A stretch of 32,000 nucleotides of DNA from Buchnera aphidicola (Eriosoma harunire) (GTDB lineage Bacteria > Pseudomonadota > Gammaproteobacteria > Enterobacterales > Enterobacteriaceae), in contig CP188086.1 of assembly GCA_049942765.1 (NCBI GenBank), forward strand, positions 595,316 to 627,315, written 5' to 3'. Both the position numbers and the translations under genes were made by a program. Position 1 is the stretch's first letter. Every line of letters begins with the position of its first letter. Positions 2,189 through 19,368 of the stretch are shown one piece after another. The notes below the pieces were generated by a model, which saw nothing but the letters and a program-made list of their open reading frames with translations, did not search any database and had not been told where the DNA came from.

Positions 2189-2331
2189 AGTAAATAATCT
2201 CAGATCTCAAATCAGTTAGTAGATAGTAATTTTGTATGTTAAAAGGATGCTACAAAATTGAATTTTGTAGCATCCTTTTAACATACAAAATTACTATCTA
2301 CTAACTGATTTGAGATCTGAGATTATTTACT
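2189..2331. repeat. Perfect 143-bp palindrome (71-bp arms, single central nt 2260) between convergent purH and metE; the right arm overlaps the metE 3' end
   Basis: 2189-2259 is the exact reverse complement of 2261-2331, checked base by base. The inner core 2241-2279 (AAAAGGATGCTACAAAATT-G-AATTTTGTAGCATCCTTTT) has the form of a bidirectional intrinsic terminator. Confidence 0.95.
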
Positions 2332-4571
2332 GCAATCATCATATTATATAATGATCTCTTTGTTTCCAACCAATCTCTAGTTTTTAAACCACAATCTGGA
2401 TTCACCCATAATCTATTAGATGGAATATATTTCAAAGCTTTTTTTAATGAATTTTCTATCCATTCACTAGGAGGAATATTAGGAGAATGAATATCATAAA
2501 TACCAGGTCCTATTGAGTTAAGATATTTGAATTTTTTAAAACTTTTTAATAATTCCATATTTGATCTTGCTGTTTCAATAGTAATTACATCAGCATCTAA
2601 CAATAATATAGAACTCATAATATCATTAAACTCACAATAACACATATGAGTATGAATTTGAGTACAATCTTTTACTCCAGAAGAAGCTAATTTAAAAGCT
2701 GTTATAGCCCAATCTAAATATTTTTTCCATAAACTTTGACGTAATGGTAAACCTTCTCTTAATGCAGGTTCGTCAATTTGAATAATTTTGATTCCAGAAT
2801 TTTCCAAATCAGCAACTTCATCTCTTAAAGCAAAAGCTAATTGTTTAGCTATGATTTCTTTTGAAATATCTTCTCTTGAAAACGACCATAGTAACATTGT
2901 TACAGGACCAGTTAGCATCCCCTTTACAAATTTATTAGTTAATGACTGTGCATATTTAGTCCATTTAATAGTCATAGGAGATAACCTATAAATGTCTCCA
3001 ACAATAATTGGTGGTTTAACACAACGTGAACCATAACTTTGAACCCATCCATATGAAGTAAATACAAATCCTTCTAATTGTTCTCCAAAATATTCTACCA
3101 TATCGTTTCTTTCAGGCTCTCCATGAACTAAGACATCAATATTAAGGTTTTCCTGTTGATATATAGTATCTTTAATATATTCTGAAATTTGTTCATTATA
3201 GTCTGATAAATTAATTTTTTGTTGTTTAAAATCTGAACGTAACTTTCTTATTTTTATAGTTTGAGGAAAAGATCCAATAGTAGTAGTAGGTAAAATAGGT
3301 AATTTTAATGTATCTTGTTGTATTTGATATCGAATTGTATAACTATTATTTCTACATATATCCCTCTGAACAATATTATCAATTCTTTTTTGAACATCTT
3401 TATTATGAACTAATAAAGAATCTTTTCTTTTTAAGATGGAAGAACTCCATGTTGTAATATCATTAATATTATCATTATTTAATGCATTAGTTAATAATTT
3501 TAATTCAGTACATTTTTGTATAGCAAAAGAAAACCAACTTTTAGTTACAGTATCTAATTTATTTTCTATATTAATATCAATAGGTGTATGTAATAATGAA
3601 CAAGATGATCCAATCCACAAGTTATTTCGACAATTCATAACAGGTTGAATTAATTTAAATAATTTAACCAAATTAGCTTTCCAAATATTCCTACCGTTAA
3701 TTACACCTAAAGATAAAACTAAATTTTTAGATAATAATTGATTAATTTGTGTTAAATTACATTTTTCGGAAATTATATCAATATGTAAACCTTGAATTGG
3801 TAATTTTTGTATAATATCTAAGTTATGTTCAATATTTCCAAAATAAGTAGTTAACAATAAATTATTGATACCATATAAATAATTATAAGCTGTAAAAAAA
3901 GCTTTTTTCCACGTATCTGAAAGTTCGAGTACTAATATAGGTTCATCTATTTGAATCCATTTTATATTTTTTTTTGCTAATGTGTGTAAAATTTTTTTAT
4001 AGACTGGGAGAATATTGTTTAATAAATCTAATCTATTGAATGAATCATCTATTGATTTACCTAACCAAAGATATGTTATAGGTCCTATAATTACTGGTTT
4101 TATATTGCGATTAAAACACATCGATTCATCAATTTCTTCAAATAGTTGAGTCCAAGTAATGTTAAACGATTGATCTTTATTAAATTCTGGTACTATATAA
4201 TGATAATTAGTATTAAACCATTTAGTCATATCAGATGCATGAATTATTTTTTCTTTAAATATTGAACCTCTAGCTATATTAAATAATATATCTAATTTTG
4301 ATAAATTATCATAATTTTTATGACGTTCTGGAATATTACCTAGTAACATACTAGTATGTAATACGTGATCATACCAAGAAAAATCCCCTACGGATAAAAA
4401 ATCTAAATTATTATCTATTTGTATTTTCCAATTTTTATGTCTAATATTGTAGCCAACAGATAACAATTCTTGTTGACTGATATTTTTTTGCCAATATTTT
4501 TCTTGAGCGTGTTTTAATTCTCGATGACATCCAATTCTAGGAAACCCTAAAATATGATTCAATATAGTCAT
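2301..4571 (-). CDS. metE: Cobalamin-independent methionine synthase
   Basis: The 756-aa ORF is full-length colinear with E. coli MetE (753 aa). It starts MTILNHILGFPRIG and carries the C-terminal HTHMCY and W.NPDCGLKTR motifs. Confidence 0.97.
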   Translation of the reverse strand: MTILNHILGFPRIGCHRELKHAQEKYWQKNISQQELLSVGYNIRHKNWKIQIDNNLDFLSVGDFSWYDHVLHTSMLLGNIPERHKNYDNLSKLDILFNIARGSIFKEKIIHASDMTKWFNTNYHYIVPEFNKDQSFNITWTQLFEEIDESMCFNRNIKPVIIGPITYLWLGKSIDDSFNRLDLLNNILPVYKKILHTLAKKNIKWIQIDEPILVLELSDTWKKAFFTAYNYLYGINNLLLTTYFGNIEHNLDIIQKLPIQGLHIDIISEKCNLTQINQLLSKNLVLSLGVINGRNIWKANLVKLFKLIQPVMNCRNNLWIGSSCSLLHTPIDINIENKLDTVTKSWFSFAIQKCTELKLLTNALNNDNINDITTWSSSILKRKDSLLVHNKDVQKRIDNIVQRDICRNNSYTIRYQIQQDTLKLPILPTTTIGSFPQTIKIRKLRSDFKQQKINLSDYNEQISEYIKDTIYQQENLNIDVLVHGEPERNDMVEYFGEQLEGFVFTSYGWVQSYGSRCVKPPIIVGDIYRLSPMTIKWTKYAQSLTNKFVKGMLTGPVTMLLWSFSREDISKEIIAKQLAFALRDEVADLENSGIKIIQIDEPALREGLPLRQSLWKKYLDWAITAFKLASSGVKDCTQIHTHMCYCEFNDIMSSILLLDADVITIETARSNMELLKSFKKFKYLNSIGPGIYDIHSPNIPPSEWIENSLKKALKYIPSNRLWVNPDCGLKTRDWLETKRSLYNMMIAVNNLRSQIS

Positions 4572-5504
4572 ATATTGTCCTTATTATCGATATAATATTA
4601 TATATTTATTTTTGATATTAATAAAAACCAATAATTTTTAATACAATGTTTTATAGAAAAAATAAAACATTAATTAAATATAATTTAGTTGTTTACATAA
4701 ACTATTTTATAATATAAAACATTGAAATACAAAATTTTATATTAAAAAAAACTATTAATATATATACAATATTAATAAGTAATATTTAATTAATAAAAAA
4801 TTAAACAAATTATATAATTAATCAAAATTATATATTTATTAAAATCAATAAAAATATTTAATCTTAATTATTTTAAATAATGTTAAAAACATTTTTCTTA
4901 TTATTAAATTTACAAAATAAAATAAAATAATTTTTATTAACAATAAAAAAGAACTATTATTTAATAATAGAAAATATTTTTTATCATAAAAATAAATTTC
5001 AATATTTATTTAATATAAAACATTTAATATTTATAATTATATATATAAAATAAAAAATCTTTTGATTGTAAAAAATTTTAATAACATCAAATTAAATATG
5101 TTTTTAATAAAAATAATTTGTACTGAAATATATTTTTTTAGTTTATGTTGGTTACATTAATAATAAAAAAATACTCTATTTAACTCTGAATTAATAATAA
5201 CTATTTTTAATAAACATATATCAAAAAACAGATAATAAAATTATTATTTTATTAATAGTATTTATTATTAATAATAAATAATGATATAAATTTAACAAAA
5301 TTAATAATTAACAAAAAAAATAATTTTACTGTATATCGTACAACTAATAACATGAGTAACTTACATTATAATTTATAATAACATCACTAATTTTTATAAA
5401 TAAAATATAAATTAGACAAATATTTTAATTATTTTGTTAATATAATTTTTATTAATTACTTCTAATTGAGGTTAAATATATTTTGAAATTATAATTTACA
5501 GCAT

Positions 5505-6018
5505 TCATAATACATCCTTTACTTGAGATAAATACATATCATAATCATTCATATTATCTCCAAATGTAATATAATTATCTAGAGTGCAACATATTTTAGA
5601 TGAAATAAATTTCAATACTGTAACTTTAGATATATCATAGTGGACTACCATTGCACATCCTATAGCAAAAAAACATTGTATTTTTAAAACTATAGTTTTA
5701 TGATTTCCATTTTTAATAATTGTAATTTATTAATGTTTGAGAATTTAAAAAATATTTTATATATATTATTAAAAATTATAATTTTAAAATTTAATAAGTT
5801 AATTTTAAAAAAATATTACATATGCTATTTTTTAAATTAATATTGTTATGAATATATTATTAATTACGAAATATATTTTCGTAGTAATGTCTAAATTATT
5901 CCTTCTTAAATTACATAAATTGATTATCAATATTATGATAAATATAACAATAAAAAAATAATCTTTGATTAGGATCATGTGTTCGAAATTCATTAGAAAT
6001 TATTACATAAAGTTGCAT
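5505..6018 (-). pseudogene. yigL: Eroded relic of a Cof/YigL-type HAD sugar-phosphatase
   Basis: A minus-strand open stretch 5726->5508 (stop at 5505-5507, no start codon) reads ..GCAMVVHYDISKVTVLKFISSKICCTLDNYITFGDNMNDYDMYL. E. coli YigL reads ..TCLEVMAGGVSKGHALEAVAKKLGYSLKDCIAFGDGMNDAEML (HAD motifs III and IV). A 35-codon ORF at 6018->5911 (MQLYVIISNEFRTH..) sits where the N-terminal DxDGT motif would be, now degenerate. The fragments lie in different frames and the C-terminus is truncated. The position upstream of metE on the same strand matches E. coli yigL-yigM-metR-metE synteny (recalled from memory). Confidence 0.5.
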
Positions 6019-6256
6019 GTTAAAATATTCCACAATAAAAATATATCAGCATAGTATCAAACTGTTATAAGAATAAAATATATATTTTTTAAAAACATTC
6101 AACAAAATTGATTTTTTAAAATCAATAATTTTACATTGAGATGTAAATAATACCCTATCTAAATTACTTACTATAATTTTATACATATATAATACTTAAA
6201 ATAAGTCATTATATTAAATATGTTCCATTAAATAAAAAATTATTTTTTAATATTCC

Positions 6257-6301
6257 AGCATCAACAAAAAAACAATTAATATGAAAGATTTTGCTGATGC
6301 T
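6257..6301 (-). terminator. Possible rpoH terminator hairpin
   Basis: AGCATCAACAAAA (6257-6269) pairs with TTTTGCTGATGCT (6289-6301). The one non-Watson-Crick position is a G-U wobble only in the minus-strand (rpoH) transcript. It lies 27 nt after the rpoH stop. The 19-nt loop is large and the trailing U-tract is weak. Confidence 0.3.
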
Positions 6302-6327
6302 AAACCATTAATAAACAATCAGTAATA

Positions 6328-7197
6328 TTATGCTTCTATAGCTATCTTTAACTTTTCCATCGCAGCTTTTTCTAATTGTCTAACTCGTTCAGCTGATATT
6401 CCATAATCATTAGCTATTTTTTGTAATGTGATTTTATTATTTTCATTTAACCATCTAGCACAAATAATTTTTCTACTTCTTTCATCTAATCGTAATAAAG
6501 CATTAGATAATTTTAAAGTAGCATGTTTTTCCCAGTTATTTTCTTCTAATAAATTAGCAAAATCAGAAGCATGATCTCTTAAATATGGCATATTAGATTT
6601 AACTTTACCTTCTATATAATCATCTTCAGAATGTAAATTAAATGCTATATCTTGAGCTGACATACGAGATTCCATTTCTCTAACATCGTCACTACTAACA
6701 CCTAATTCTTTTGCAACTAAATCTAATTCTGATTTATTAAACCAACCTAATCTTGATTTATTTTTTCTTAAATTAAAGAACAATTTTCTTTGTGATTTTG
6801 TTGTTGCAACTTTTACAATTCTCCAATTTTTTAATACATATTCATGTATTTCTGATTTTATCCAATGAACAGCAAATGATACTAAACGTACTCCTATATC
6901 AGGATTAAATTTTTTAACAGCTTTCATTAAACCTATATTACCTTCTTGAATTAAATCAGCTTGCGGTAAACCATAACCTGAATAATTCCTAGCTACGTGT
7001 ACAACAAATCTTAAATGAGATAAAATAAGTGTTTTAGCAGCATTTAAATCACTATGGTAATACAATCTCTGAGATAAAAATTTTTCTTCTTCCAATGATA
7101 ACATAGGCCAAGAACTAGCAGATCTAATATAAGATTCTAAATTTCCTAACGAAGTAACTGCAAATCTATTTTTTTTATCAATCATTTCATATCTCAT
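6328..7197 (-). CDS. rpoH: RNA polymerase sigma-32 (heat-shock sigma factor)
   Basis: The 289-aa ORF is near-identical in blocks to E. coli RpoH, for example [39 protein letters not shown], the RpoH box [10 protein letters not shown], and [10 protein letters not shown]. The true start may be the internal Met at 7185. Confidence 0.95.
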
Positions 7198-7464
7198 ATA
7201 AATGTATTATATTAATATTAATGTTTATTACAGATAAAACTAAAGTAGTTATATTTTATTAATATAATTTAATAATATTAAATCTAATAGTTCTATTTTT
7301 ATAAAAAACATACTTTCTATGAATATGAAAATTGGTAATATTTTTAATAAAATCTATTCATATTATATTGATTAATAATACATTAAATTAATATTGTAAA
7401 ATACATATTTATAAATGAATTAATAATTTTATATAACATTAATTTTTAGTTAATGATAAATTAT

Positions 7465-8391
7465 TTATTTATCAAAAAACGCTTGAATAAAATCATGACT
7501 ATTAAACTCTCTTAAATCTGTAATTTTTTCTCCAATGCCAATATATCTAATTGGAATACAAAAATCATTAGCAAGAGAAAAAATAACACCTCCCTTTGCA
7601 GTGCCATCTAATTTAGTTAATGAAATACCAGTTAATTTTAAAGAATTGTGAAAAAACTTAGTTTGTTGTATGGTATTTTGTCCAGTACTTGCATCTATTA
7701 TTAACATAATTTCATGAGGACTATTCATTATTTTTTTTTTAATAACTCTAATAATTTTTTTTAATTCATTCATTAAATATAATTTATTATGTAATCTACC
7801 TGCCGTATCGATAATCAATATATCAATGTCTTTCGATATTGTATAATCTAATGCATTAAATACCACCGAAGCCGGATCAGATTTAATATTTGTAGATGAA
7901 ATTACTGGAATATTATATAAATCACCCCATCCTTGTAATTGATCAATTGCTGCAGGTCTAAATGTATCAGCAGCTGCTAATACAACTCTTTTACCTTCAA
8001 TACTATATTTTTTAGCTAATTTTCCTATTGTAGTAGTTTTCCCAACTCCATTAACTCCAACTACTAATATAACAAAAGGTTTTTTTTTTATATTAAATTG
8101 AATAGGTTTATCAACTTTATTTAAAATTAAAAACATTTCTTGTTTCAATTGTTCAATAATAAAATTAGTACTATACTTGTTGTGACGATTAATATAATTT
8201 TTTATATTATCAATGATTAATTCTGTAGTTATGATACTCATATCAGATAATAATAATTTTTCTTCAAGTTCTTCAATAAAATCATCATTAGTATTTTTTT
8301 TTAAAAATAAATTAGTTAACCCAGTGCTAAATTTTTTACTAGTTTTATATAAACTGTTTTTTAATCTTGTAAATAAATTATTATTCTTCAT
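7465..8391 (-). CDS. ftsY: Signal recognition particle receptor FtsY (NG domain only)
   Basis: The 308-aa ORF carries GVNGVGKTTTIGKLA, DTAGR, TKLDGTAKGG and the GIGE..DL..F tail. Its N-terminus aligns with the start of the E. coli NG domain, and no acidic A domain is present. Confidence 0.95.
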   Translation of the reverse strand: MKNNNLFTRLKNSLYKTSKKFSTGLTNLFLKKNTNDDFIEELEEKLLLSDMSIITTELIIDNIKNYINRHNKYSTNFIIEQLKQEMFLILNKVDKPIQFNIKKKPFVILVVGVNGVGKTTTIGKLAKKYSIEGKRVVLAAADTFRPAAIDQLQGWGDLYNIPVISSTNIKSDPASVVFNALDYTISKDIDILIIDTAGRLHNKLYLMNELKKIIRVIKKKIMNSPHEIMLIIDASTGQNTIQQTKFFHNSLKLTGISLTKLDGTAKGGVIFSLANDFCIPIRYIGIGEKITDLREFNSHDFIQAFFDK

Positions 8392-8774
8392 AATGTTATA
8401 TTTATGTTATATATTTTAATATTACAACTTAATTGTTGTATTTTATTGATTTTGTAATTTCGATTATTATCCTATAATGCATTATCATACAACAAATCAT
8501 AATATAAATATTGAGTTTAATAATATTACTTAACATTGTTTTTATTAAGATTTGATATATATCAATTAAGAATCACATCTCTAAATTTTAAATTTATTAA
8601 CATTTACGTAATTTAAAAAATAATTACACATATTTAAATTAAAAATTTAATAAAAATGAATTTATCTATTTAAATTAATTCGTTGTGTAAAAATAAACAA
8701 TTTATTTTTAAAATATTTTTATCCGTAATATACATTCAATATATTTTAAATAATGATTTTAAGAGAAACGTAGT

Positions 8775-9346
8775 ATGAAAATTAATGGAAAAAATAATAA
8801 AATTAGAATTATTGGTGGTTTTTTGAAAAACCAATTTATATCAACAAAAAATTTATGTAATGTTAGACCTACTACTAATTTTATGAAAGAGACATTATTT
8901 AATTGGCTAAAATACGATATTATTAATGCTAATTGCCTTGATTGTTTTGCTGGGAGTGGTTCATTAGGTATTGAAGCTATTTCTCGATACGCTAAAAAAG
9001 TTACTTTTATAGATTCAAAAAAAAAACTATTTATTATTTAAAAAGAAATTTAATTCAATTAAATATTCTTAATTATGTTCATCTTATAAATTCCGATATA
9101 TTTTTATGGTTAAAAAAAAATAAAAAAAATTATAACATCATATTTTTAGATCCACCGTTTCAAGAAAATATAATTAATTCAATTATTTTATTATTAGAAC
9201 AATATTCTTTATTTGCATTAAAAACATTTATTTATATAGAAAAACAACATAATTTACAATCTTTACATATTCCAAAAAATTGGTATTTATATAAATTTAA
9301 AAAAAAAAAAAATGTATCTTATTATTTATATATTAGAACAATATAA
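8775..9346 (+). pseudogene. rsmD: 16S rRNA m2G966 methyltransferase RsmD (YhhF), one frameshift in an A10 tract
   Basis: ORF 8775-9041 (IRIIGG, RPTT, ETLFNWL, LDCFAGSGSLGIEA) stops shortly after A10 at 9017-9026. The reading frame that starts at 9026 continues to TAA at 9344-9346. It reads ..IYYLKRNLIQL..NSD...YNIIFLDPPF...IYIE..IPKNW.LYK, colinear with the E. coli RsmD C-terminal half. Confidence 0.8.
9017..9026 (+). repeat. A10 homopolymer at the rsmD frameshift site
   Basis: Counted directly from the sequence. One extra A would put the two halves in frame. Confidence 0.9.
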
Positions 9347-9531
9347 ATTTATAAATATTTTATATACGTATCTATTAATCTTTTAATTGTTAATTTTTAA
9401 TATGTTTTTTTTAATAAAAATACACTTTTTTTTATAGTAAAAATATCAATTTTTTAACGATTTGACATTTTTAAATAAAATGAGTTATATATATAATATG
9501 ATTCAATTTTAATAATATTAAATATAAAACT

Positions 9532-10272
9532 ATGACAAAACATACTCATATTCTAATGCGATTAAAAAGATTAGTTCCACAACATATAAAACCAAAATTT
9601 AGACATGAATCTGAATTATTATCTTGGAATCAAGAACAAGGTATAATATCTTCCAATTTTATTGTACAAGAAAACCGAGCTATAAAAATGGAAAAAATAT
9701 TAGGTAGATCGGGTATAAGAGAATTATATATTAATTGTTCATTTGATAATTATCGTATTCATCATGATGGTCATAAAAGAGTATTAAGATGTGCAGAAAA
9801 ATATGCTAAAAATTTTGATAAAAATATAGCTGGTTTTATTTTTTCTGGTAAACCTGGAACAGGAAAAAATCATTTAGCTTCAGCTATAGGAAATTATTTA
9901 ATACTACATGGAAAAAGTGTTTTAATTGTTACTGTAGCTGATCTTATGTCTAATATTAAAAGTACTTTTAATAATTTCAGTCATATTACTGAAGAAAAAT
10001 TATTAAATAGATTAAGTACAGTCGATTTGTTAATGATTGATGAAATTGGAATGCAAATTGAATCTCGATATGAAAAAATTATTATCAATCAAATTGTTGA
10101 TAGAAGATCTTCTTCCAAACGTGCTACTGGTATGCTAACAAATTTAAATTTTTCTAAAATGAAACAATTGTTAGGTGAAAGAGTTATTGATCGTATGCGT
10201 TTAGGTAATAGTTTGTGGTTAAATTTTGAATGGGATAGTTATCGAAAAAATATTACAGGTAATGAATTATAA
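9532..10272 (+). CDS. dnaC: Replicative helicase loader DnaC
   Basis: The 246-aa ORF is colinear with E. coli DnaC. Shared blocks are ENRAIKMEK, SGI, NCSF.NYR, FIFSGKPGTGKNHLA (Walker A), LLMIDEIG, IINQIVDRRSSSKR.TGMLTN and RMRLGNSLW..F.WDSYR. Confidence 0.9.
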   Translation: MTKHTHILMRLKRLVPQHIKPKFRHESELLSWNQEQGIISSNFIVQENRAIKMEKILGRSGIRELYINCSFDNYRIHHDGHKRVLRCAEKYAKNFDKNIAGFIFSGKPGTGKNHLASAIGNYLILHGKSVLIVTVADLMSNIKSTFNNFSHITEEKLLNRLSTVDLLMIDEIGMQIESRYEKIIINQIVDRRSSSKRATGMLTNLNFSKMKQLLGERVIDRMRLGNSLWLNFEWDSYRKNITGNEL

Positions 10273-10329
10273 TTTACATTATATTTTTATACATAATATT
10301 AAGTACAAATATTCACAAATTAATGAAAA

Positions 10330-10902
10330 TTAGTTATCAACTATTTTTTTAATTCTAGAAATATATTGAATTGTTCGAGTATCTATTTTTATGATATTAT
10401 TTATATTGATAAATAAAGGGACTTTAATTTTTATTCCATTAGTTAGTTCTGCAAATTTAAATCCATGGGTTACTGATTCTCCTTTAAAACTATTAGATGT
10501 TTTTACTACTTGTAATTCAATAAAATTATTAGGAACAACAGTAATAATTTGATTGTTCCATAATTTTACTAAATAAGATTTTTGTTCTGACAGCCACGGT
10601 AATATATTTGATATAATATTTATTTTTACAGTATATTCTTCACAATTTTTTTTATTTAAAAAATAACAATGGAAATTATCTTTATATAAATATAATAATT
10701 TCACATCAATAATATTTGCTTGTTCAAAAGATTCATTAGAACGAAAAGATCGATCAATTAATTGACCAGACAATAATTTTCTGATTTTTACTCGTATAAA
10801 TGCTTGTCCTTTTCCGGGTTTAAAAAATTCACTATTTTCAATATTACAAGGTTCATTTTCAAAAATAATTTTAGTACCAATTTTAAAATTTTTACTAAAC
10901 AT
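10330..10902 (-). CDS. efp: Translation elongation factor P
   Basis: The 190-aa ORF carries F.KPGKGQAF.RVK (the conserved modified-lysine loop), the LW.NQ...V.PNF.EL motif, and the KVPLF...IK.DTR...Y.SR tail. Confidence 0.95.
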   Translation of the reverse strand: MFSKNFKIGTKIIFENEPCNIENSEFFKPGKGQAFIRVKIRKLLSGQLIDRSFRSNESFEQANIIDVKLLYLYKDNFHCYFLNKKNCEEYTVKINIISNILPWLSEQKSYLVKLWNNQIITVVPNNFIELQVVKTSNSFKGESVTHGFKFAELTNGIKIKVPLFININNIIKIDTRTIQYISRIKKIVDN

Positions 10903-11400
10903 ATTATTACCTATATTATTTTTTTTAAATAAATACTGATAAAATATATAAGTAGAATATTAAATAAAAACATATAATTAAAATATAGATGTATTTAATT
11001 ATACTAAATCTTTAACTAGTCAGTATTATTTATTCATAATGTATTAATTAATATTTATTGATGTTCTTTAATGTTTTTTTAAAAACAATAAATTGTTAAA
11101 AAATTAATTTAACAAAAATTAAATTCTAACACACATACTGAATATATATATAATATATTTTATATAATATTCATTATATATTAATATTAAACAATTCTTA
11201 AAATTTATAAATATAATAAACAATGTTTATATATATTTATTTTTAAATATATAAAAAAATTAATAATTTTTTATATCTATTCTAAATAGATATTATCTAT
11301 TAATTATATTAAATTTCATTTGATAAAAAATACTTTATGTCAATATTTTTAATACAAACAACATTTAAATATTGTTTTTTAATTAATATTACAAAATTAC

Positions 11401-11431
11401 ATCTCCAGATTATGAAAAATAATCTGGAGAT
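11401..11431 (-). terminator. groESL intrinsic terminator
   Basis: A perfect 12-bp stem pairs ATCTCCAGATTA (11401-11412) with TAATCTGGAGAT (11420-11431) around a 7-nt loop. It lies 27 nt after the groEL stop. On the transcribed strand it is followed by GUAAUUUUGUAAUAUU. Confidence 0.6.
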
Positions 11432-11458
11432 TAATATCAAATATTCAAAAATATCATA

Positions 11459-13144
<1,686 letters not shown>

Positions 13145-13147
13145 TTA

Positions 13148-13438
13148 TTATTCAACAATTGCTAAAATGTCACTTTCAGTTAAAATTAATACTTCTTCAT
13201 GATCCATTTTCTCTGTTTTTGCACCATAACCTTCATTAAATATTACAACATCTCCTACTTTAACATCAAGTGGTTTAACATTTCCATTATCTAAAATACG
13301 ACCATTTCCTACTGCAATAACCGTTCCACGAGTAGATTTACTTGCAGCAGATCCTGTCAGTACAATACCACCAGCTGATTTCGATTCAGCTTCTTGTCTT
13401 TTAATAATAACACGATCATGTAATGGACGAATTTTCAT
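13148..13438 (-). CDS. groES: Co-chaperonin GroES (10 kDa)
   Basis: The 96-aa ORF starts [13 protein letters not shown] and has the mobile loop ..[12 protein letters not shown]. It lies immediately upstream of groEL, with a GGGGA Shine-Dalgarno sequence. Confidence 0.98.
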
Positions 13439-13527
13439 TTAATCATTCCCCTGTTAATAACTATATTCAATTGTTTTAATAAATTAATTATTATATATAT
13501 ATTAAAAACAACATTGCTCAATTTAAG

Positions 13528-13556
13528 ATATGAGGATCAATTTTATAACTTTCAAG
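13528..13556 (-). promoter_or_regulatory. Sigma32-type heat-shock promoter for groESL
   Basis: The minus strand reads CTTGAAA (13556-13550), a 14-nt spacer, then CCTCATAT (13535-13528). The E. coli sigma32 consensus is CTTGAAA-N13-15-CCCCATNT. The promoter lies about 90 nt upstream of the groES ATG. Confidence 0.6.
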
Positions 13557-13608
13557 TCTTATTTTTATTTTTTTTAAATTAAAATTTATTTTTTATTGAA
13601 TAAAAGAG

Positions 13609-13638
13609 TTGACTTTTATTGAAAACTAATGATTAAAT
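13609..13638 (+). promoter_or_regulatory. Possible sigma70 promoter for tRNA-Phe
   Basis: TTGACT at 13609-13614 is followed by TTAAAT at 13633-13638 with an 18-nt spacer, about 10 nt before the tRNA 5' end. AT-rich background makes -10-like hexamers common. Confidence 0.35.
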
Positions 13639-13647
13639 ATTAATATT

Positions 13648-13720
13648 GCCCGAATAGCTCAGTTGGTAGAGCAGGGGACTGAAAATCCCCGTGTCGGTGG
13701 TTCAATTCCGCCTTCGGGCA
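13648..13720 (+). tRNA. pheV: tRNA-Phe (anticodon GAA)
   Basis: GCCCGAATAGCTCAGTTGGTAGAGCAGGGGACTGAAAATCCCCGTGTCGGTGGTTCAATTCCGCCTTCGGGCA is near-identical to E. coli tRNA-Phe. The acceptor stem pairs GCCCGAA with TTCGGGC. The 3' flank is TTA, so CCA is not encoded. Confidence 0.95.
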
Positions 13721-13823
13721 TTACATATATAAAAATATTTTATATTAATAATAAAATATTGATATTTATAAAATAAATATTAAAAATAATAAATAAAATA
13801 TATAAATATTTAAGAAAAAATTA

Positions 13824-15185
13824 TCATTTACCTAAACAGAAAGTAGAAAAAATATTATCTAATAATTTTTCGTTGCTTACAGTACCTGTTATTTCTCCTA
13901 GTTTTTTTTGAACAATATTAATATCTTCTGCTAAGAGTTCTATATTTTGACATATCAACCAATTTTTTTTCGTTTTAGATAATATTTTATTAATTTGATG
14001 CAATTTATTCAAATGTCTTCTTCTAGCTAAAAATATTCCTTCAGTATCATTATGCATACCTAACAAAGTAATAAAATGTTGATTCAATTGATTAAATCCA
14101 TCTAAAGTTAGAGATGACACATATAATACTGGATATTGTTGATTTTCTAAAAAAGTATTCTTTCTTTTTAAAAGATCAGTTTTATTTATTAAAATAGTTA
14201 TTGAACAATTTTTTGGAAATAAATCAATATATTGTAAATATATTTTTTTCTGTTTAATGACAGAATCTGTTGCACTCATTACAAATATAATATGATCTGA
14301 TTTATTAATTTCTTGCCATGCTCGTTCAATTCCTATGGAATCAATTTCATCTTTAGTTTGATGTAATCCTGCAGTATCTACCAATTGAAATGTTACATTA
14401 TGAATGTTGATATATTCTTTTAAAGTATCTCTTGTGGTACCTTTAATATTAGTGACAATAGCAGTATTAGATCCACATAATGCATTAAATAAACTAGATT
14501 TTCCTACATTAGGTTCACCTGTAATAACAATTTTAATTTTTTCTCTGAATATACTACCTCTTTTACTTTTTAATTCAATATTTTTGCAATGATTTAGAAT
14601 ATCATTTAAAATATTAACAATGTGATCTTGCGAAAAATTATTTTCTTCCAATTCAATAAAATTAATAGACCCTTCAATCTCTACTTGAAGTGTTGTAATT
14701 TTTTGCATTAAATTATTAATTTCTTTAGAAAATATTCCAGTTAATGATTCTAATGATAATTGAGCAGCTTTTTCTGAAGTTGCATGAATTAAATCAGCAA
14801 TAGCTTCTGCTTGAATCAGATCTAATTTATTATTTAGAAAAGCTCTTTCTGAAAATTCTCCAGGATTAGCTATTCGTACTCCAGGTATAGAAATAATATT
14901 TTTTATTAATAAATCTAATACGATAGGACTACCATGTCCTTGTAATTCTAGTACATCTTCTCCAGTAAAAGAGTTTGGAGCAGGAAACCAAATAGCAATA
15001 CCATGATCTAAAACATTGTTATTTTGATTTTTAAATAATGAAAAAGTTGCATATCTAGGAATAGGTATTTTTCCTAATATGATTTTTGTTAACATACGGG
15101 TTTTTGATCCGGATATTCTTAAAATTCCTACACTACTTATACCAATTGGTGTAGCTTGAGCAACAATAGTATCTTGTGATGTCAT
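13824..15185 (-). CDS. mnmE: tRNA modification GTPase MnmE (TrmE/ThdF)
   Basis: The 453-aa ORF starts with DTIVAQATP.G and carries the G-domain motifs GEPNVGKSSLFNAL, DTAG and NK.D, plus the C-terminal CLGK. Confidence 0.95.
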   Translation of the reverse strand: MTSQDTIVAQATPIGISSVGILRISGSKTRMLTKIILGKIPIPRYATFSLFKNQNNNVLDHGIAIWFPAPNSFTGEDVLELQGHGSPIVLDLLIKNIISIPGVRIANPGEFSERAFLNNKLDLIQAEAIADLIHATSEKAAQLSLESLTGIFSKEINNLMQKITTLQVEIEGSINFIELEENNFSQDHIVNILNDILNHCKNIELKSKRGSIFREKIKIVITGEPNVGKSSLFNALCGSNTAIVTNIKGTTRDTLKEYINIHNVTFQLVDTAGLHQTKDEIDSIGIERAWQEINKSDHIIFVMSATDSVIKQKKIYLQYIDLFPKNCSITILINKTDLLKRKNTFLENQQYPVLYVSSLTLDGFNQLNQHFITLLGMHNDTEGIFLARRRHLNKLHQINKILSKTKKNWLICQNIELLAEDINIVQKKLGEITGTVSNEKLLDNIFSTFCLGK

Positions 15186-15279
15186 ATATTATCTTTTTTC
15201 ATATTAAAAATTAAATTTTTTAGTTTGATATTTCATGACTATATTTTGTATAAAATATAAATTTATTGTAATAATTGAA

Positions 15280-16914
15280 TTAATTTTTGATGATATTATC
15301 ATTTATTAATTTTTGATGAATAATCTTTTGCTGAATAATAGTCATTAAATTATTTATTATATAATATAATACTAAACCAGAAGGAAACCATAAAAAAAAT
15401 ATCATAAAAACAATTGGAGTTATATACATAATTTGTTTTTGTAAAGGATTATCTACAGTGTTAGGAGAAATTTGTTGTAATAGAAACATAGTGATTCCCA
15501 TAAATATAGGTAAAATATAATATGGATCTTGAGCTGATAAATCATGTATCCAAAAAATAAATGGTGCGTGTCTTAGTTCTACTGAATTACTTAACATATA
15601 ATATAAAGCTAAAAAAATGGGCATTTGAATTAATAATGGAAGAAATCCTTTTAATGGATTAACTTGTTCATGTTTGTATAATGCAATTATTTCTTGATTT
15701 ATTTTTCTATTATCTGTTTTATAACGTTCTTTAATTAAATTGATTTTAGGTTGCAATTGTTTCATTTTTATCATAGACACATATTGTGCTTTAGTTAAAG
15801 GAAACATAATTAATTTAATTAATATTGTAATCAATATAATTGCATAACCCCAATTTCCAATTAAATAATAAAAAAATCTTAACAATTTAAACATTGGTTG
15901 TGATAACCACCAAAACATTCCATAATCAATAGTAAAATTTAAAGTAGGAGATATAAAACTCATATTATCTTGTATTTTTGGACCTAACCATAATTTAGAT
16001 TGAAAACTATAATTAGAATAAGGTAATATATTTATTGATACAGACTTATAACCTATAGTTGCTATAGAATTTTGATTGGAAACTGATGTATAAAACGTAT
16101 TAATTATAGGTGATATAGGTATCCACGCTGAAATAAAATATTGTTGAACCATTGCAATCCAACCATCGGATACTGTTGATAGTATTTGATTTTGTTTACT
16201 AACTGAATTTAAATTATATTTAACATATTTATCATGATCACTAGAATAAGCAATACCTCTATCTGAAGATAGAAAAATATTTGAATTATTATTTTTTTTA
16301 ATATTTTTAGGAATATGAATTGTTTGTTTAAATTGTCCAAACATAGCAATATTTAAATTTTTATTAGTATTGTTTATAATTTTATGTTCTATATCTAAAC
16401 TATATTGACCTGATTTTAAAGTAAATATTTTAATATATTTTGTACCTAAAGAATCTGACCAAATAAAGGGTATTGACATTTTTTTTTCTGTAAGTTTCAT
16501 ACGAAAGTTATGATTAGATACATGATAATATGGTCTATGATTTAAATTAATCTGATCAGGTCCATCTTTACCTGATATTCCACTTTGAGCTTGATAAATA
16601 AATTCAGGTGTAGTATTCAATAAATGTAAATATATGGGGGATTGAAGTGTATTTTTATATTTTAACAAAATTACTTTATCTATATCTCCTCCATATGGAT
16701 TTATAATAATAGACATAACATCATTACTTATCATTACATGTTCTTGATTGACAACATTGTGTTTTAATGAATGTATTGTTGTATCTTGATTATTTATAGA
16801 GTGAGTATATGGATATTGTTCATTTTGATATGGTTTCCATAAGATAAAAGCAGTGCATATACAAAATAAAATAAAAAAAATTCGTTGAAATACATTCATT
16901 ATTGAACATCTCAT
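15280..16914 (-). CDS. yidC: Membrane protein insertase YidC
   Basis: The 544-aa ORF has an N-terminal transmembrane segment, a large periplasmic domain, and a conserved C-terminal core (..WGYAIILITILIK...PLT.AQY.SM.KM..LQPK...). The true start may be the Met at 16899 (MNVFQR..). Confidence 0.95.
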   Translation of the reverse strand: MRCSIMNVFQRIFFILFCICTAFILWKPYQNEQYPYTHSINNQDTTIHSLKHNVVNQEHVMISNDVMSIIINPYGGDIDKVILLKYKNTLQSPIYLHLLNTTPEFIYQAQSGISGKDGPDQINLNHRPYYHVSNHNFRMKLTEKKMSIPFIWSDSLGTKYIKIFTLKSGQYSLDIEHKIINNTNKNLNIAMFGQFKQTIHIPKNIKKNNNSNIFLSSDRGIAYSSDHDKYVKYNLNSVSKQNQILSTVSDGWIAMVQQYFISAWIPISPIINTFYTSVSNQNSIATIGYKSVSINILPYSNYSFQSKLWLGPKIQDNMSFISPTLNFTIDYGMFWWLSQPMFKLLRFFYYLIGNWGYAIILITILIKLIMFPLTKAQYVSMIKMKQLQPKINLIKERYKTDNRKINQEIIALYKHEQVNPLKGFLPLLIQMPIFLALYYMLSNSVELRHAPFIFWIHDLSAQDPYYILPIFMGITMFLLQQISPNTVDNPLQKQIMYITPIVFMIFFLWFPSGLVLYYIINNLMTIIQQKIIHQKLINDNIIKN

Positions 16915-17105
16915 TTATATTGATATATTTAATAATATATATAGATATTATTTGTTAATTGATTTTATTAATATACAAAGATATATAGTTAATAACTGAA
17001 TTTAGATATAGCATTATTTATGCTAAATCAATAATGATAAAAATGTTTATTTTTTTGTTAATAATTATTAATTTTTTTAGGATTATTATAAATAATTATA
17101 TAATA

Positions 17106-17605: not shown

Positions 17606-18016
17606 AATATTTTCCTAGAATAAATAAAAAATAAATATATGTTATTAAAATGAAAATTTTAATTTTAGTTTTTAAATTATATAAAAAATTAATGCTATAT
17701 GTTTTTTAATATAAAATACATATTTTAATTTATTTTTAATATTTACAATAAATAATTGTTTGAAAATTGAATTACTTAACAATGTTCTTTATATTTTTTT
17801 TCATTAATAATGAACGTACATTTAAATATTACAATAATATGTATTTATTATCATATTATCTATATAAAGATAAGTTATATTTAATATTTAATTATTTTTT
17901 ATATAATACTTATTGAATATTTCATATTTGTTGTATAAATATTTTTTATAAAAATTTTTAAATATTTTTATGTTAATTTATAATTTTATATTAATGTTAT
18001 TAATATAAGGATTATT

Positions 18017-19368
18017 ATGTCATTGTCAATTTGGCAGTATTTTCTTTCTTTGTTACAAAATAAATTATCACCTATAGAATATAGTATATGGATTCGTCCA
18101 TTAAAAGTTCAATGTTTAGATAATAATGTTTTAGAATTATCAGCTCCTAATCAATTTGTATTAGATCGAGTAAAAAATAAATATATTTCTAATTACTATC
18201 CATTAATTAGTAATCATTTTGGACCTCATTGTCCAAAATTAAAAATTACAGTCAATAAAAAATTACAAGAAATTAATCAAAAATCATTTATAATAAAAAA
18301 AAAAAAAAAATAATTATTACAAATAATTCTATGTCTCCATTAAATTATAATAATTATTTAAAATTTCATTTTAATAAAAGTCATAATTTTGAAAATTTTA
18401 TTGAAGGTAAATCAAATCAATTAGCACGATCTGTAACATTTAAAATAGCTAATAATACTACAATTAGACGATATCTAATTTTATTATATGGAAATTCAGG
18501 ATTAGGTAAAACGCATTTATTGCATGCTGTAGGTAATTGTATTTTTATTAATAAAAAAAATGCAAAAGTAATATATATAGATTGTAAATTATTTTTAAAA
18601 AAATCAATGAATATATTAGAATCTAATTCTATTGAAGTATTAAAAAATTATTATAGTTCAATAGATGCATGTTTAATTGATAATATTCATTATTTTCAAT
18701 ATGCTAAAAAAAATCAAACATTGTTATTTAACACATTGCCGATGTTATTAAAAAATAGTCAACAAATAATTGCAACTTCAAATTGTTATCCTAAACATAT
18801 AATTGGTTTAGAAGATGTATTTAAATCGCAATTAAAATGGAGTATAGTAATAGAAATACATCCTCCTGAATTGCATACTAGAATATCTATTCTTATAAAA
18901 AAAGCAAACGAATATAAAATACTTTTATCTACTAAAATTGCTTATTTAATTGCTACAAAATTTAAATCAAATATTAAAGATTTAGAAAATATATTACATG
19001 AAATTATTTTTCATTCCAATATTACTAATCAAAAAATTACAATAAATTTTGTAAATGAAATACTAAATGATTGTAAAAGGGAAAAAATTAACATATCTGT
19101 CATACAACAAATAGTAGCACAATATTATCAAATAAAAATTACTGATTTATTGTCATCTAGTAGATTACGTTCAATAGTTAGACCTAGACAAATAGCAATG
19201 AGTATTTCAAAAACTATGACTAATCACAGTTTATCTGAAATAGGATATGCTTTTGGAAAACGTGATCATACAACAGTTTTACATGCATGTAAAACAATAC
19301 AAATATTAAAAAAACAAAAAACTATCTATGATGATTGGTGTAATATCATTAAAAAACTATCAGTGTAA
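18017..19368 (+). CDS. dnaA: Chromosomal replication initiator DnaA, with the reading frame interrupted inside an A16 tract (ORFs 18017-18313 and 18331-19368)
   Basis: ORF1 is domain I (MSLSIWQ..L...L...EYS.WIRPL, as in E. coli MSLSLWQQCL..). ORF2 covers domains III-IV (FENFIEGKSNQLA, GNSGLGKTHLLHAVGN, RPRQIAM, DHTTVLHAC). The frame of ORF2 is open back into the A16 tract at 18295-18310, so one extra A fuses the two parts. Confidence 0.9.
18295..18310 (+). repeat. A16 homopolymer at the dnaA frameshift site (domain I/II boundary)
   Basis: Counted directly from the sequence (18295-18310). Confidence 0.9.

Follow-up and report, generated by a model that had tools for sequence, protein, structure and literature searches.

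Is the dnaA gene of Buchnera aphidicola (Eriosoma harunire), which is interrupted by a one-base frameshift at a run of 16 A residues, still a working gene and, if so, how could its full-length product be made? DnaA is the master replication initiator, and its retention has long been linked to the question of whether bacterium or host controls replication of a symbiont. The locus was analyzed in a 32,000-nt stretch of the 627,315 bp chromosome (CP188086; assembly GCA_049942765.1, contig CP188086.1, positions 595,316 to 627,315 of the forward strand), referred to below as the window, in whose numbering all coordinates are given unless another contig is named. The explanation that we favor, and to which we give about an even chance of being correct, is that the genome carries dnaA out of frame, owing to a hypermutable tract in the linker region, and that slippage, transcriptional (+1) and/or ribosomal (−1), partially rescues its expression.

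A one-base frameshift divides dnaA at an A16 tract

The gene order around dnaA, rpmH-dnaA-dnaN-gyrB, is the same as in other Buchnera, and dnaA keeps a normal translation start signal: a Shine-Dalgarno-like AAGGA, read from the sequence at 18007–18011 (+ strand, as are all features of the gene), 5 nt upstream of the ATG at 18017. The first open reading frame (ORF), ORF1 (18017–18313, 98 codons), encodes DnaA domain I and the start of the linker (Pfam DnaA_N, 1.3e-13) and ends at a TAA (18311–18313) that directly adjoins the A16 tract (18295–18310), the site of the frameshift and of the proposed slippage. A single uninterrupted dnaA reading frame is absent: the gene continues after this TAA in the −1 frame relative to ORF1 (18277–19368), which encodes the remaining linker, the AAA+ domain III and the DNA-binding domain IV (Bac_DnaA, 6.9e-42; Bac_DnaA_C, 1.9e-27). 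The −1 frame is free of stops from 18277 onward, reading ..SKIIYNKKKKKIIITNNSM.. / ..SKIIYNKKKKKIIITNNSMSPLNYNN.., and encodes the peptide IIITNNSMSPLNYNNYLK upstream of its first ATG (18331–18333), a possible re-initiation start 17 nt past the TAA. The ORF from this ATG to 19368 has 345 codons, carries the Bac_DnaA and Bac_DnaA_C matches, and would specify a DnaA without domain I. GenBank annotates dnaA as two coding sequences (CDS), of which XRX42606.1 is identical to the 98-aa product of ORF1 and XRX42607.1 is identical to the product of the 345-aa ORF.

The two halves together have the domain architecture of one DnaA. All three Pfam DnaA domains (DnaA_N, Bac_DnaA and Bac_DnaA_C) score above their cut-offs, and a tract of A17 (or A14) would fuse ORF1 to the −1 frame to give a protein of 450 aa (or 449 aa), with A20 also in frame. 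The fused 450-aa DnaA scores 389.3 bits on the NCBIfam equivalog TIGR00362 (cut-off 343.9), matching profile positions 1–436 of 437; the DnaA of Rhopalosiphum padi Buchnera scores far higher, at 592 bits. The A16 tract, which in frame 0 reads as five AAA Lys codons and also contains A_AAA_AAA slippery heptamers, is the longest homopolymer in the window, followed by one A14 and otherwise by runs of at most 10. The lesion is a single indel in a sense-strand A homopolymer, as in endosymbiont poly(A) frameshifts (runs of ~9 nt or more), in an otherwise intact gene. A preliminary description of this DNA, made from the sequence alone, had given the A16 tract, the 98 codons with their TAA, the domain III–IV frame open into the tract and the ATG at 18331, and had proposed that one extra A would yield a single DnaA of normal architecture; the anatomy proves correct in every detail. 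We conclude that the one-base frameshift in dnaA of E. harunire Buchnera is confirmed.

A second Eriosoma symbiont has a frameshift at the orthologous tract

The closest DnaA in databases is a 454-aa protein of the Buchnera of Eriosoma grossulariae, with 52–53% identity. The gene for this protein (OZ060402.1, L003 10001–11364) is 1364 nt long, not a multiple of three. Its frame 0 reads ..SIKIKKKIIL followed by two stops (KEKEKSIKIKKKIIL and two stops), and the rest of DnaA lies in another frame (..NKKKNNFMINQ..). The break is at an A11 tract (L003 10282–10292), and the change needed to restore the frame is one additional A, exactly as in E. harunire. The deposited 454-aa protein, CAL4317703.1, can be obtained only if one A of the tract is read twice: that is, the E. 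grossulariae depositors annotated dnaA across a slippage. In a DNA alignment, the flanks of the two tracts are alike, AATCAWTTAWAAT-(A)n-TAATT, with n = 16 vs. 11, and at both loci the tract is the longest homopolymer; the TAATT that follows it is in different reading frames in the two species. In E. grossulariae, the frame-0 stop overlaps an ATG of the downstream frame (ATGA; TTATGATAA; L003 10295–10302). The E. grossulariae assembly was produced by another laboratory, and a run of 11 can be counted dependably by sequencing; we conclude that, in at least one of the Eriosoma symbionts, the frameshift at the dnaA tract is a biological fact.

A comparison of tract length among relatives, as the preliminary description had advised, therefore gives A16 in E. 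harunire, A11 in E. grossulariae, also out of frame, and A8 in the Buchnera of Eriosoma lanigerum (OZ060395.1, L009 7222–8598), in which dnaA is intact (454/458 aa; RefSeq WP_367679435.1). The gene is intact also in the Buchnera of Tetraneura ulmi and in four other Buchnera. A scan of genome contigs with the C-terminal ORF returned distant relatives only (a psyllid secondary symbiont with 49% identity and one metagenome-assembled genome), the Eriosoma Buchnera not being among them. In the contig index, the 345-aa ORF, E. lanigerum DnaA and YidC gave no match, and the loci were located by way of GyrB, RpmH and DnaC. E. grossulariae thus provides a related lineage with a frameshift at the same tract and no further degradation, although the two frameshifts need not be identical by descent. 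Multi-gene distances suggest the topology ((E. grossulariae, E. lanigerum), E. harunire). Repeated loss of the frame at a hypermutable tract would explain the distribution as well as an ancestral frameshift would.

Both parts of dnaA are under purifying selection

The first alternative to slippage is that dnaA is an early-stage pseudogene: that is, a gene becoming dispensable, in which the poly(A) shift is a recent inactivating lesion and from which no useful DnaA is made. A pseudogene is marked by multiple lesions and by a ratio of nonsynonymous to synonymous substitution rates (dN/dS) near 1. Comparison of E. harunire and E. grossulariae Buchnera by the method of Nei and Gojobori, which averages over the whole path between the two, gives dN/dS of 0.47 for the domain I part of dnaA, 0.51 for the downstream part, 0.49 for domain III, 0.48 for domain IV and 0.81 for the linker. 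The corresponding values are 0.50 for dnaN, 0.51 for yidC and 0.52 for atpH. The coding parts of dnaA are as constrained as these undoubted neighbor genes, and no stop codon or indel other than the tract shift is present in either half of the gene in either species. In place of the marks of a pseudogene we find one lesion and dN/dS of ~0.5.

A neutral simulation, in which AT-biased substitution was applied to the actual dnaA sequence, indicates how long such a state could last without selection. The 345-codon frame remained stop-free with P = 0.017 at 0.05 substitutions/site and with P = 0 at 0.1 substitutions/site or more, so that neutral drift would end the open state of the frames within ~0.05 substitutions/site, and dS between E. 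harunire and E. grossulariae is ~0.6. We conclude that selection has kept the frames open for essentially all of the divergence and, therefore, that any loss of function would have to be very recent and to have occurred independently in both species. Very recent inactivation would give the same picture of one lesion and dN/dS of ~0.5. The branch ratio E. harunire/E. grossulariae for DnaA, 1.9, lies inside the range of 1.1–2.0 for the other 17 genes, all intact, and so does not set dnaA apart.

DnaA has changed throughout the Eriosoma clade

Among other Buchnera, mean identity is 0.71 for DnaA vs. 0.69 for GyrB; between Eriosoma symbionts it is 0.50–0.61 for DnaA vs. 0.72–0.76 for GyrB. Expressed as the distance to the outgroups divided by the outgroups' own spread, DnaA has values of 2.4 in E. 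harunire, 1.8 in E. grossulariae and 2.2 in E. lanigerum, vs. 0.95–1.5 for other genes. In each of the three Eriosoma Buchnera, DnaA thus evolves at approximately twice the rate expected from neighboring genes and, since the acceleration is seen in E. lanigerum with its intact gene, the frameshift is not its cause.

The acceleration is accompanied by changes at functional residues of the AAA+ domain (numbering of Escherichia coli K-12, by direct alignment). In E. coli, R285 is the arginine finger for ATP-DnaA-specific oligomerization and origin unwinding, R281 stabilizes the DnaA oligomer, and ATP hydrolysis requires R334. All three Eriosoma Buchnera have D269N in sensor I and have lost box VII R281 and the arginine finger R285, R281 being replaced by V, F and F and R285 by Q, K and K in E. 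harunire, E. grossulariae and E. lanigerum, respectively (R281V and R285Q in E. harunire). E. harunire alone also has D236N in Walker B and R334K in sensor II, so that, of the AAA+ catalytic and oligomerization residues, only K178 (Walker A) and D235 are kept. Six other Buchnera, including that of Tetraneura ulmi, are canonical at all these positions. The domain IV contacts R399, R407, D433, H434, T435 and H439 and the domain I residues W6, E21 and F46 are retained in E. harunire. From the aligned residues, we read the constraint on the DnaA ATP switch as relaxed or shifted throughout the Eriosoma clade and, if it is relaxed, a lower dose of DnaA would be tolerable.

An early-stage pseudogene would account for this twofold acceleration in all three symbionts, for the low TIGR00362 score of the fused protein (389 bits, vs. 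592 for an ordinary Buchnera DnaA) and for the company that the gene keeps: rsmD, in the same window, likewise has a break at a poly(A) run, and the annotation of the E. harunire Buchnera genome includes 17 pseudogenes (PMC12243488). However, two very recent independent inactivations at the same tract, each in a gene otherwise intact, would be needed, in two lineages in which dnaA is no less constrained than dnaN or yidC. We consider it unlikely that dnaA is a pseudogene.

Slippage at the tract could restore full-length DnaA

According to the slippage hypothesis, RNA polymerase would slip backwards on the 16 template T's and add one A, giving an A17 mRNA and, from it, a DnaA of ~450 aa. A stop codon directly after a slippery tract could favor P-site slippage. 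Ribosomes could likewise slip by −1 on the AAA-AAA codons that the UAA follows, perhaps with help from this stop codon in the A site. The tract is in a weakly conserved part of DnaA, the linker (14–26% identity among the three Eriosoma DnaA proteins; dN/dS 0.81), so that the products of A14, A17 and A20 mRNAs, differing by one Lys in either direction, would all be expected to be functional and should work equally well. The cost of the frameshift would be small, owing to slippage on a long tract together with the relaxed constraint on DnaA across Eriosoma Buchnera.

Published data on endosymbionts make such a process credible. Transcriptional errors of Buchnera in A/T runs are overwhelmingly single-base insertions, with a rate that increases exponentially with run length (PMC5574713); both out-of-frame Eriosoma tracts require one additional A, corresponding exactly to the type of slippage commonest for the Buchnera polymerase, and, since 16 nt exceeds any tract measured in that study, a large in-frame fraction is plausible. 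The findings of Tamas et al. (2008) on Buchnera and Blochmannia, which we take as they are summarized in PMC5009743 and PMC3017870, put corrected transcripts from those frameshifted poly(A) genes that were measured at 12–50% in the former summary and at ~30% as quoted in the latter. Poly(A) frameshifts occur in otherwise intact endosymbiont genes and are sometimes common to several species; those of Blochmannia include frameshifts in dnaX and dnaG, the one in dnaX being common to two species (PMC3017870).

Several points weigh against rescue by slippage. Slippage at A16 and production of full-length DnaA are what we infer from the sequence, and Traverse and Ochman found no frame-restoring transcription error in Buchnera pseudogenes (PMC5574713). 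Of the components of a programmed −1 site, the A_AAA_AAA heptamer in the zero frame is present (within 18295–18310) and a stimulatory element is not: no Shine-Dalgarno-like stimulator (GGAG/AGGA-like) was seen by eye before the tract, and the predicted RNA structure in the 90 nt past the tract (−8.8 kcal/mol, z = −1.45) was matched by 16 of 200 shuffled sequences. With no significant downstream structure, we do not claim a programmed frameshift signal at A16. The comparison with relatives is also less simple than inheritance of one frameshift: given that dnaA is intact in E. lanigerum and given the topology above, two events are required under any scenario and, since the tracts differ by 5 nt and TAATT is in different frames, the frameshift has not simply been inherited unchanged. 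The dN/dS values, as averages over the path between the two species, are compatible with two recent independent inactivations. The loss of R281, R285 and D269 in all three symbionts, and of D236 and R334 in E. harunire, is what a gene on its way out would show. Finally, and also in keeping with an early pseudogene, dnaA is wholly lost in the Buchnera of Cerataphidini, whose aphids carry Arsenophonus (bioRxiv 10.1101/2025.07.09.664008), and Arsenophonus is abundant in E. harunire too.

The tract length is reproduced by Illumina-only contigs

A further alternative is that the frameshift is an artefact, the genomic tract being truly A17 (or A14) and dnaA an ordinary intact gene. The CP188086 assembly was produced from Nanopore R10.3 reads with Guppy 4.2.3, miniasm and Racon, followed by three rounds of Pilon with 75-bp Illumina reads (PMC12243488), and with a Nanopore-based pipeline homopolymer error is a serious possibility. 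Nanopore and Illumina both miscount 16-base homopolymers, and stutter of the polymerase chain reaction tends toward shortening. In addition, the genome paper attributes the Illumina libraries to a "TruSeq RNA" kit (PMC12243488), which makes it ambiguous whether the polishing reads derive from DNA or from cDNA.

Logan contigs assembled from Illumina run SRR33632139 alone provide an independent count. Three of them, L011 (corresponding to window positions 2302–15400), L010 (15372–18310) and L008 (18281–31826), match the window base for base. The 3' end of L010 consists of 15 nt plus A16, the 5' end of L008 consists of 14 nt plus A16 plus T, and the overlap between these contigs is exactly 30 nt, so that A16 is the sole tract length that Illumina k-mers connect to the downstream flank, and it is the length in the polished assembly. 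The Illumina-only contigs run unbroken through the A10 and A14 tracts of the window. Because these contigs reproduce the A16 exactly, it is not a leftover Nanopore error, though a 16-mer may still be miscounted by one base.

The break between L010 and L008 bears on both sides of the question. Logan contigs are built with k = 31, and a 30-nt overlap of contigs is the signature of a branching node; the graph thus breaks exactly at the tract, as it would if there were a second continuation of A17 or longer. We take this as a hint of length heterogeneity, with some reads having a 17th A, and it is also the sole hint of a heterogeneous mRNA pool. It is only a hint because the contigs also break at 15372–15400, where the longest run is A8, that is, away from long homopolymers; this second break makes the one at A16 weak evidence, rather than proof, of heterogeneity among reads. 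The E. grossulariae tract, whose 11 residues are sequenced far more reliably, likewise breaks the frame at this site, and its depositors curated the break as real. We regard an artefact as improbable.

Separate use of the two products

A third alternative is that dnaA has become a split gene, in which a 98-aa domain I and a 345-aa DnaA re-initiated at ATG 18331 are both used. The proximity of this ATG to the stop in E. harunire, and the ATGA overlap in E. grossulariae, a classic arrangement for translational coupling, suggest re-initiation; the domain I part is by itself under purifying selection; and GenBank annotates two CDS. However, ATG 18331 is not preceded by a Shine-Dalgarno sequence, the alignment shows no conservation of its Met, which E. 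lanigerum lacks, and at ~80% A+T it is not unusual for an ATG to fall within 10 codons. The properties of E. coli DnaA also count against a split gene: recruitment of the DnaB helicase requires domain I to be attached to DnaA that is bound at the origin, N-terminally truncated DnaA fails to support initiation in vivo, and we know of no way for an untethered domain I to recruit helicase. A split gene is compatible with slippage, both of which could operate at the same locus, and on its own account it is quite improbable.

These three readings of the sequence (slippage, two polypeptides and an early pseudogene) were those set out in the preliminary description. They were the right set; slippage is favored by the recurrence in E. 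grossulariae, the purifying selection on both halves and the lack of any other lesion, and the pseudogene, the split gene and an A17 artefact still stand beside it at the strengths given above.

The preliminary description went on to suggest that a slippage-dependent dnaA would amount to built-in throttling of initiation, and it is very improbable that the out-of-frame tract is a maintained expression device of this kind, in which the amount of initiator depends on how often polymerase or ribosome slips and DnaA has been remodeled to do without the arginine-finger ATP switch: DnaA evolves fast and lacks the arginine finger even in the species with an intact gene, which argues for relaxed constraint rather than designed regulation and leaves throttling an unsupported speculation. 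Were such a device real, its slippage rate could respond to temperature, nucleotide pools or growth state, and it would constitute a slippage-gated replication initiator in a polyploid symbiont.

Comparison with known systems

The nearest counterparts of the favored explanation are the endosymbiont poly(A) frameshifts with transcriptional slippage, as these are presented in the two summaries cited above. The likeness comprises an indel in a long sense A run in an AT-rich reduced genome, a gene otherwise intact and under purifying selection, a related species frameshifted at the same tract, and the involvement of a replication gene. The differences are that here the gene is the initiator dnaA, the tract is 16 nt rather than the usual ≤12, the site is a length-tolerant linker and slippage is deduced rather than observed; and that tract length and downstream frame differ between species, so that a repeated origin is no less likely than inheritance. 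Features of this kind are already known, and dnaA as the affected gene is new. Neither a published case that affects dnaA nor an account of the dnaA frameshift in any Eriosoma Buchnera was found in the searchable literature. The preliminary description had called all its readings unusual for the master initiator. That judgment needs tempering, since the phenomenon is an established one in endosymbionts (PMC3017870, PMC5009743) and dnaA has been lost altogether in some Buchnera (bioRxiv 10.1101/2025.07.09.664008).

A second counterpart is the −1 ribosomal frameshifting of dnaX type (A_AAA_AAG). The sequence here, A_AAA_AAA, is similar, and a −1 shift enters the functional frame; in dnaX, however, the shift gives a shorter product, whereas here it is needed for the full-length product and has no conserved stimulatory architecture around it. 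A third is outright loss of dnaA, as in Wigglesworthia, most Blochmannia, Baumannia, Carsonella and Sulcia (PMC4389277) and in the Buchnera of Cerataphidini. Like these, E. harunire Buchnera is a reduced insect symbiont, with visibly relaxed constraint on DnaA and with a companion Arsenophonus in the host; unlike in these, dnaA is neither deleted nor riddled with stops, having one lesion, conserved halves and intact DNA-binding residues. A fourth is provided by phase-variable loci of Haemophilus and Neisseria, in which, as here over evolutionary time, a hypermutable coding homopolymer toggles the frame. Here, however, the homopolymer sits in a housekeeping gene of a symbiont that is clonal and bottlenecked, with rescue proposed at the level of RNA or ribosome and not by DNA switching, and we found no evidence of adaptive switching at the dnaA tract.

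Other features of the window

rsmD (16S rRNA methyltransferase; 8775–9340, +) is split by a −1-type frameshift in an A10 tract (9017–9026), with one additional A needed to restore the frame. In alignment with the RsmD of E. grossulariae Buchnera, which is intact and 187 aa long, the first part matches residues 1–82 and the second part residues 81–186. The A10 is exactly the same in L011, an Illumina-only contig. The second longest homopolymer of the window, the A14 tract at 9299–9312 (+), lies in frame within the C-terminal part of rsmD (..YKFKKKKNVSYY..), which indicates that very long tracts can persist in frame in this genome.

Three observations concern genes and sites of replication. The E. 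harunire symbiont lacks dnaT (primosomal protein) between rsmD and dnaC (9341–9531), as does that of E. grossulariae (L003 1347–1470); in three other Buchnera (L005, L006 and L007) it lies directly upstream of dnaC. DnaC shows a 2.1-fold clade-specific acceleration, yet is 82% identical between E. harunire and E. grossulariae. The absence of dnaT and the acceleration of DnaC suggest that erosion extends more widely through the machinery that initiates and restarts replication. DnaA boxes (TTWTNCACA) number 3 in the window vs. 6.2 expected by chance, a count that is not informative, and the presumed oriC lies past the window end, upstream of gidA/mnmG.

Two further stretches differ from those of other Buchnera or lack recognizable genes. 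yidD, present between rnpA and yidC in the Buchnera of R. padi (L006), in L007 and in the Buchnera of T. ulmi (L012), was not called at 16915–17105 in the window, in the other Eriosoma Buchnera (L003 and L009) or in the Formosaphis locus. The 1.75 kb between metE (2301–4571) and rpoH (6328–7197), at 4572–6327, has ~16% G+C and no ORF of ≥80 aa, and may be a remnant of decayed genes; in Buchnera APS, rpoH has glmS and glmU nearby.

Implications for replication control in Buchnera

In practical terms, the two-CDS annotation of dnaA in GenBank is misleading. In two of the three Eriosoma Buchnera species, full-length DnaA can be obtained only through poly(A) slippage. In most Buchnera, dnaA is retained and highly conserved, and in a few lineages it is gone; the Eriosoma Buchnera look like an intermediate stage between the two. 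If slippage is confirmed, the initiator itself would join the essential genes that are expressed through polymerase infidelity in reduced genomes, and the trio of species with A16, A11 and A8 would be a tractable system for determining how much DnaA a symbiont needs. The recurrent frameshift, together with the clade-wide loss of the arginine finger, makes the Eriosoma symbionts a worthwhile lead for the study of symbiont replication control.

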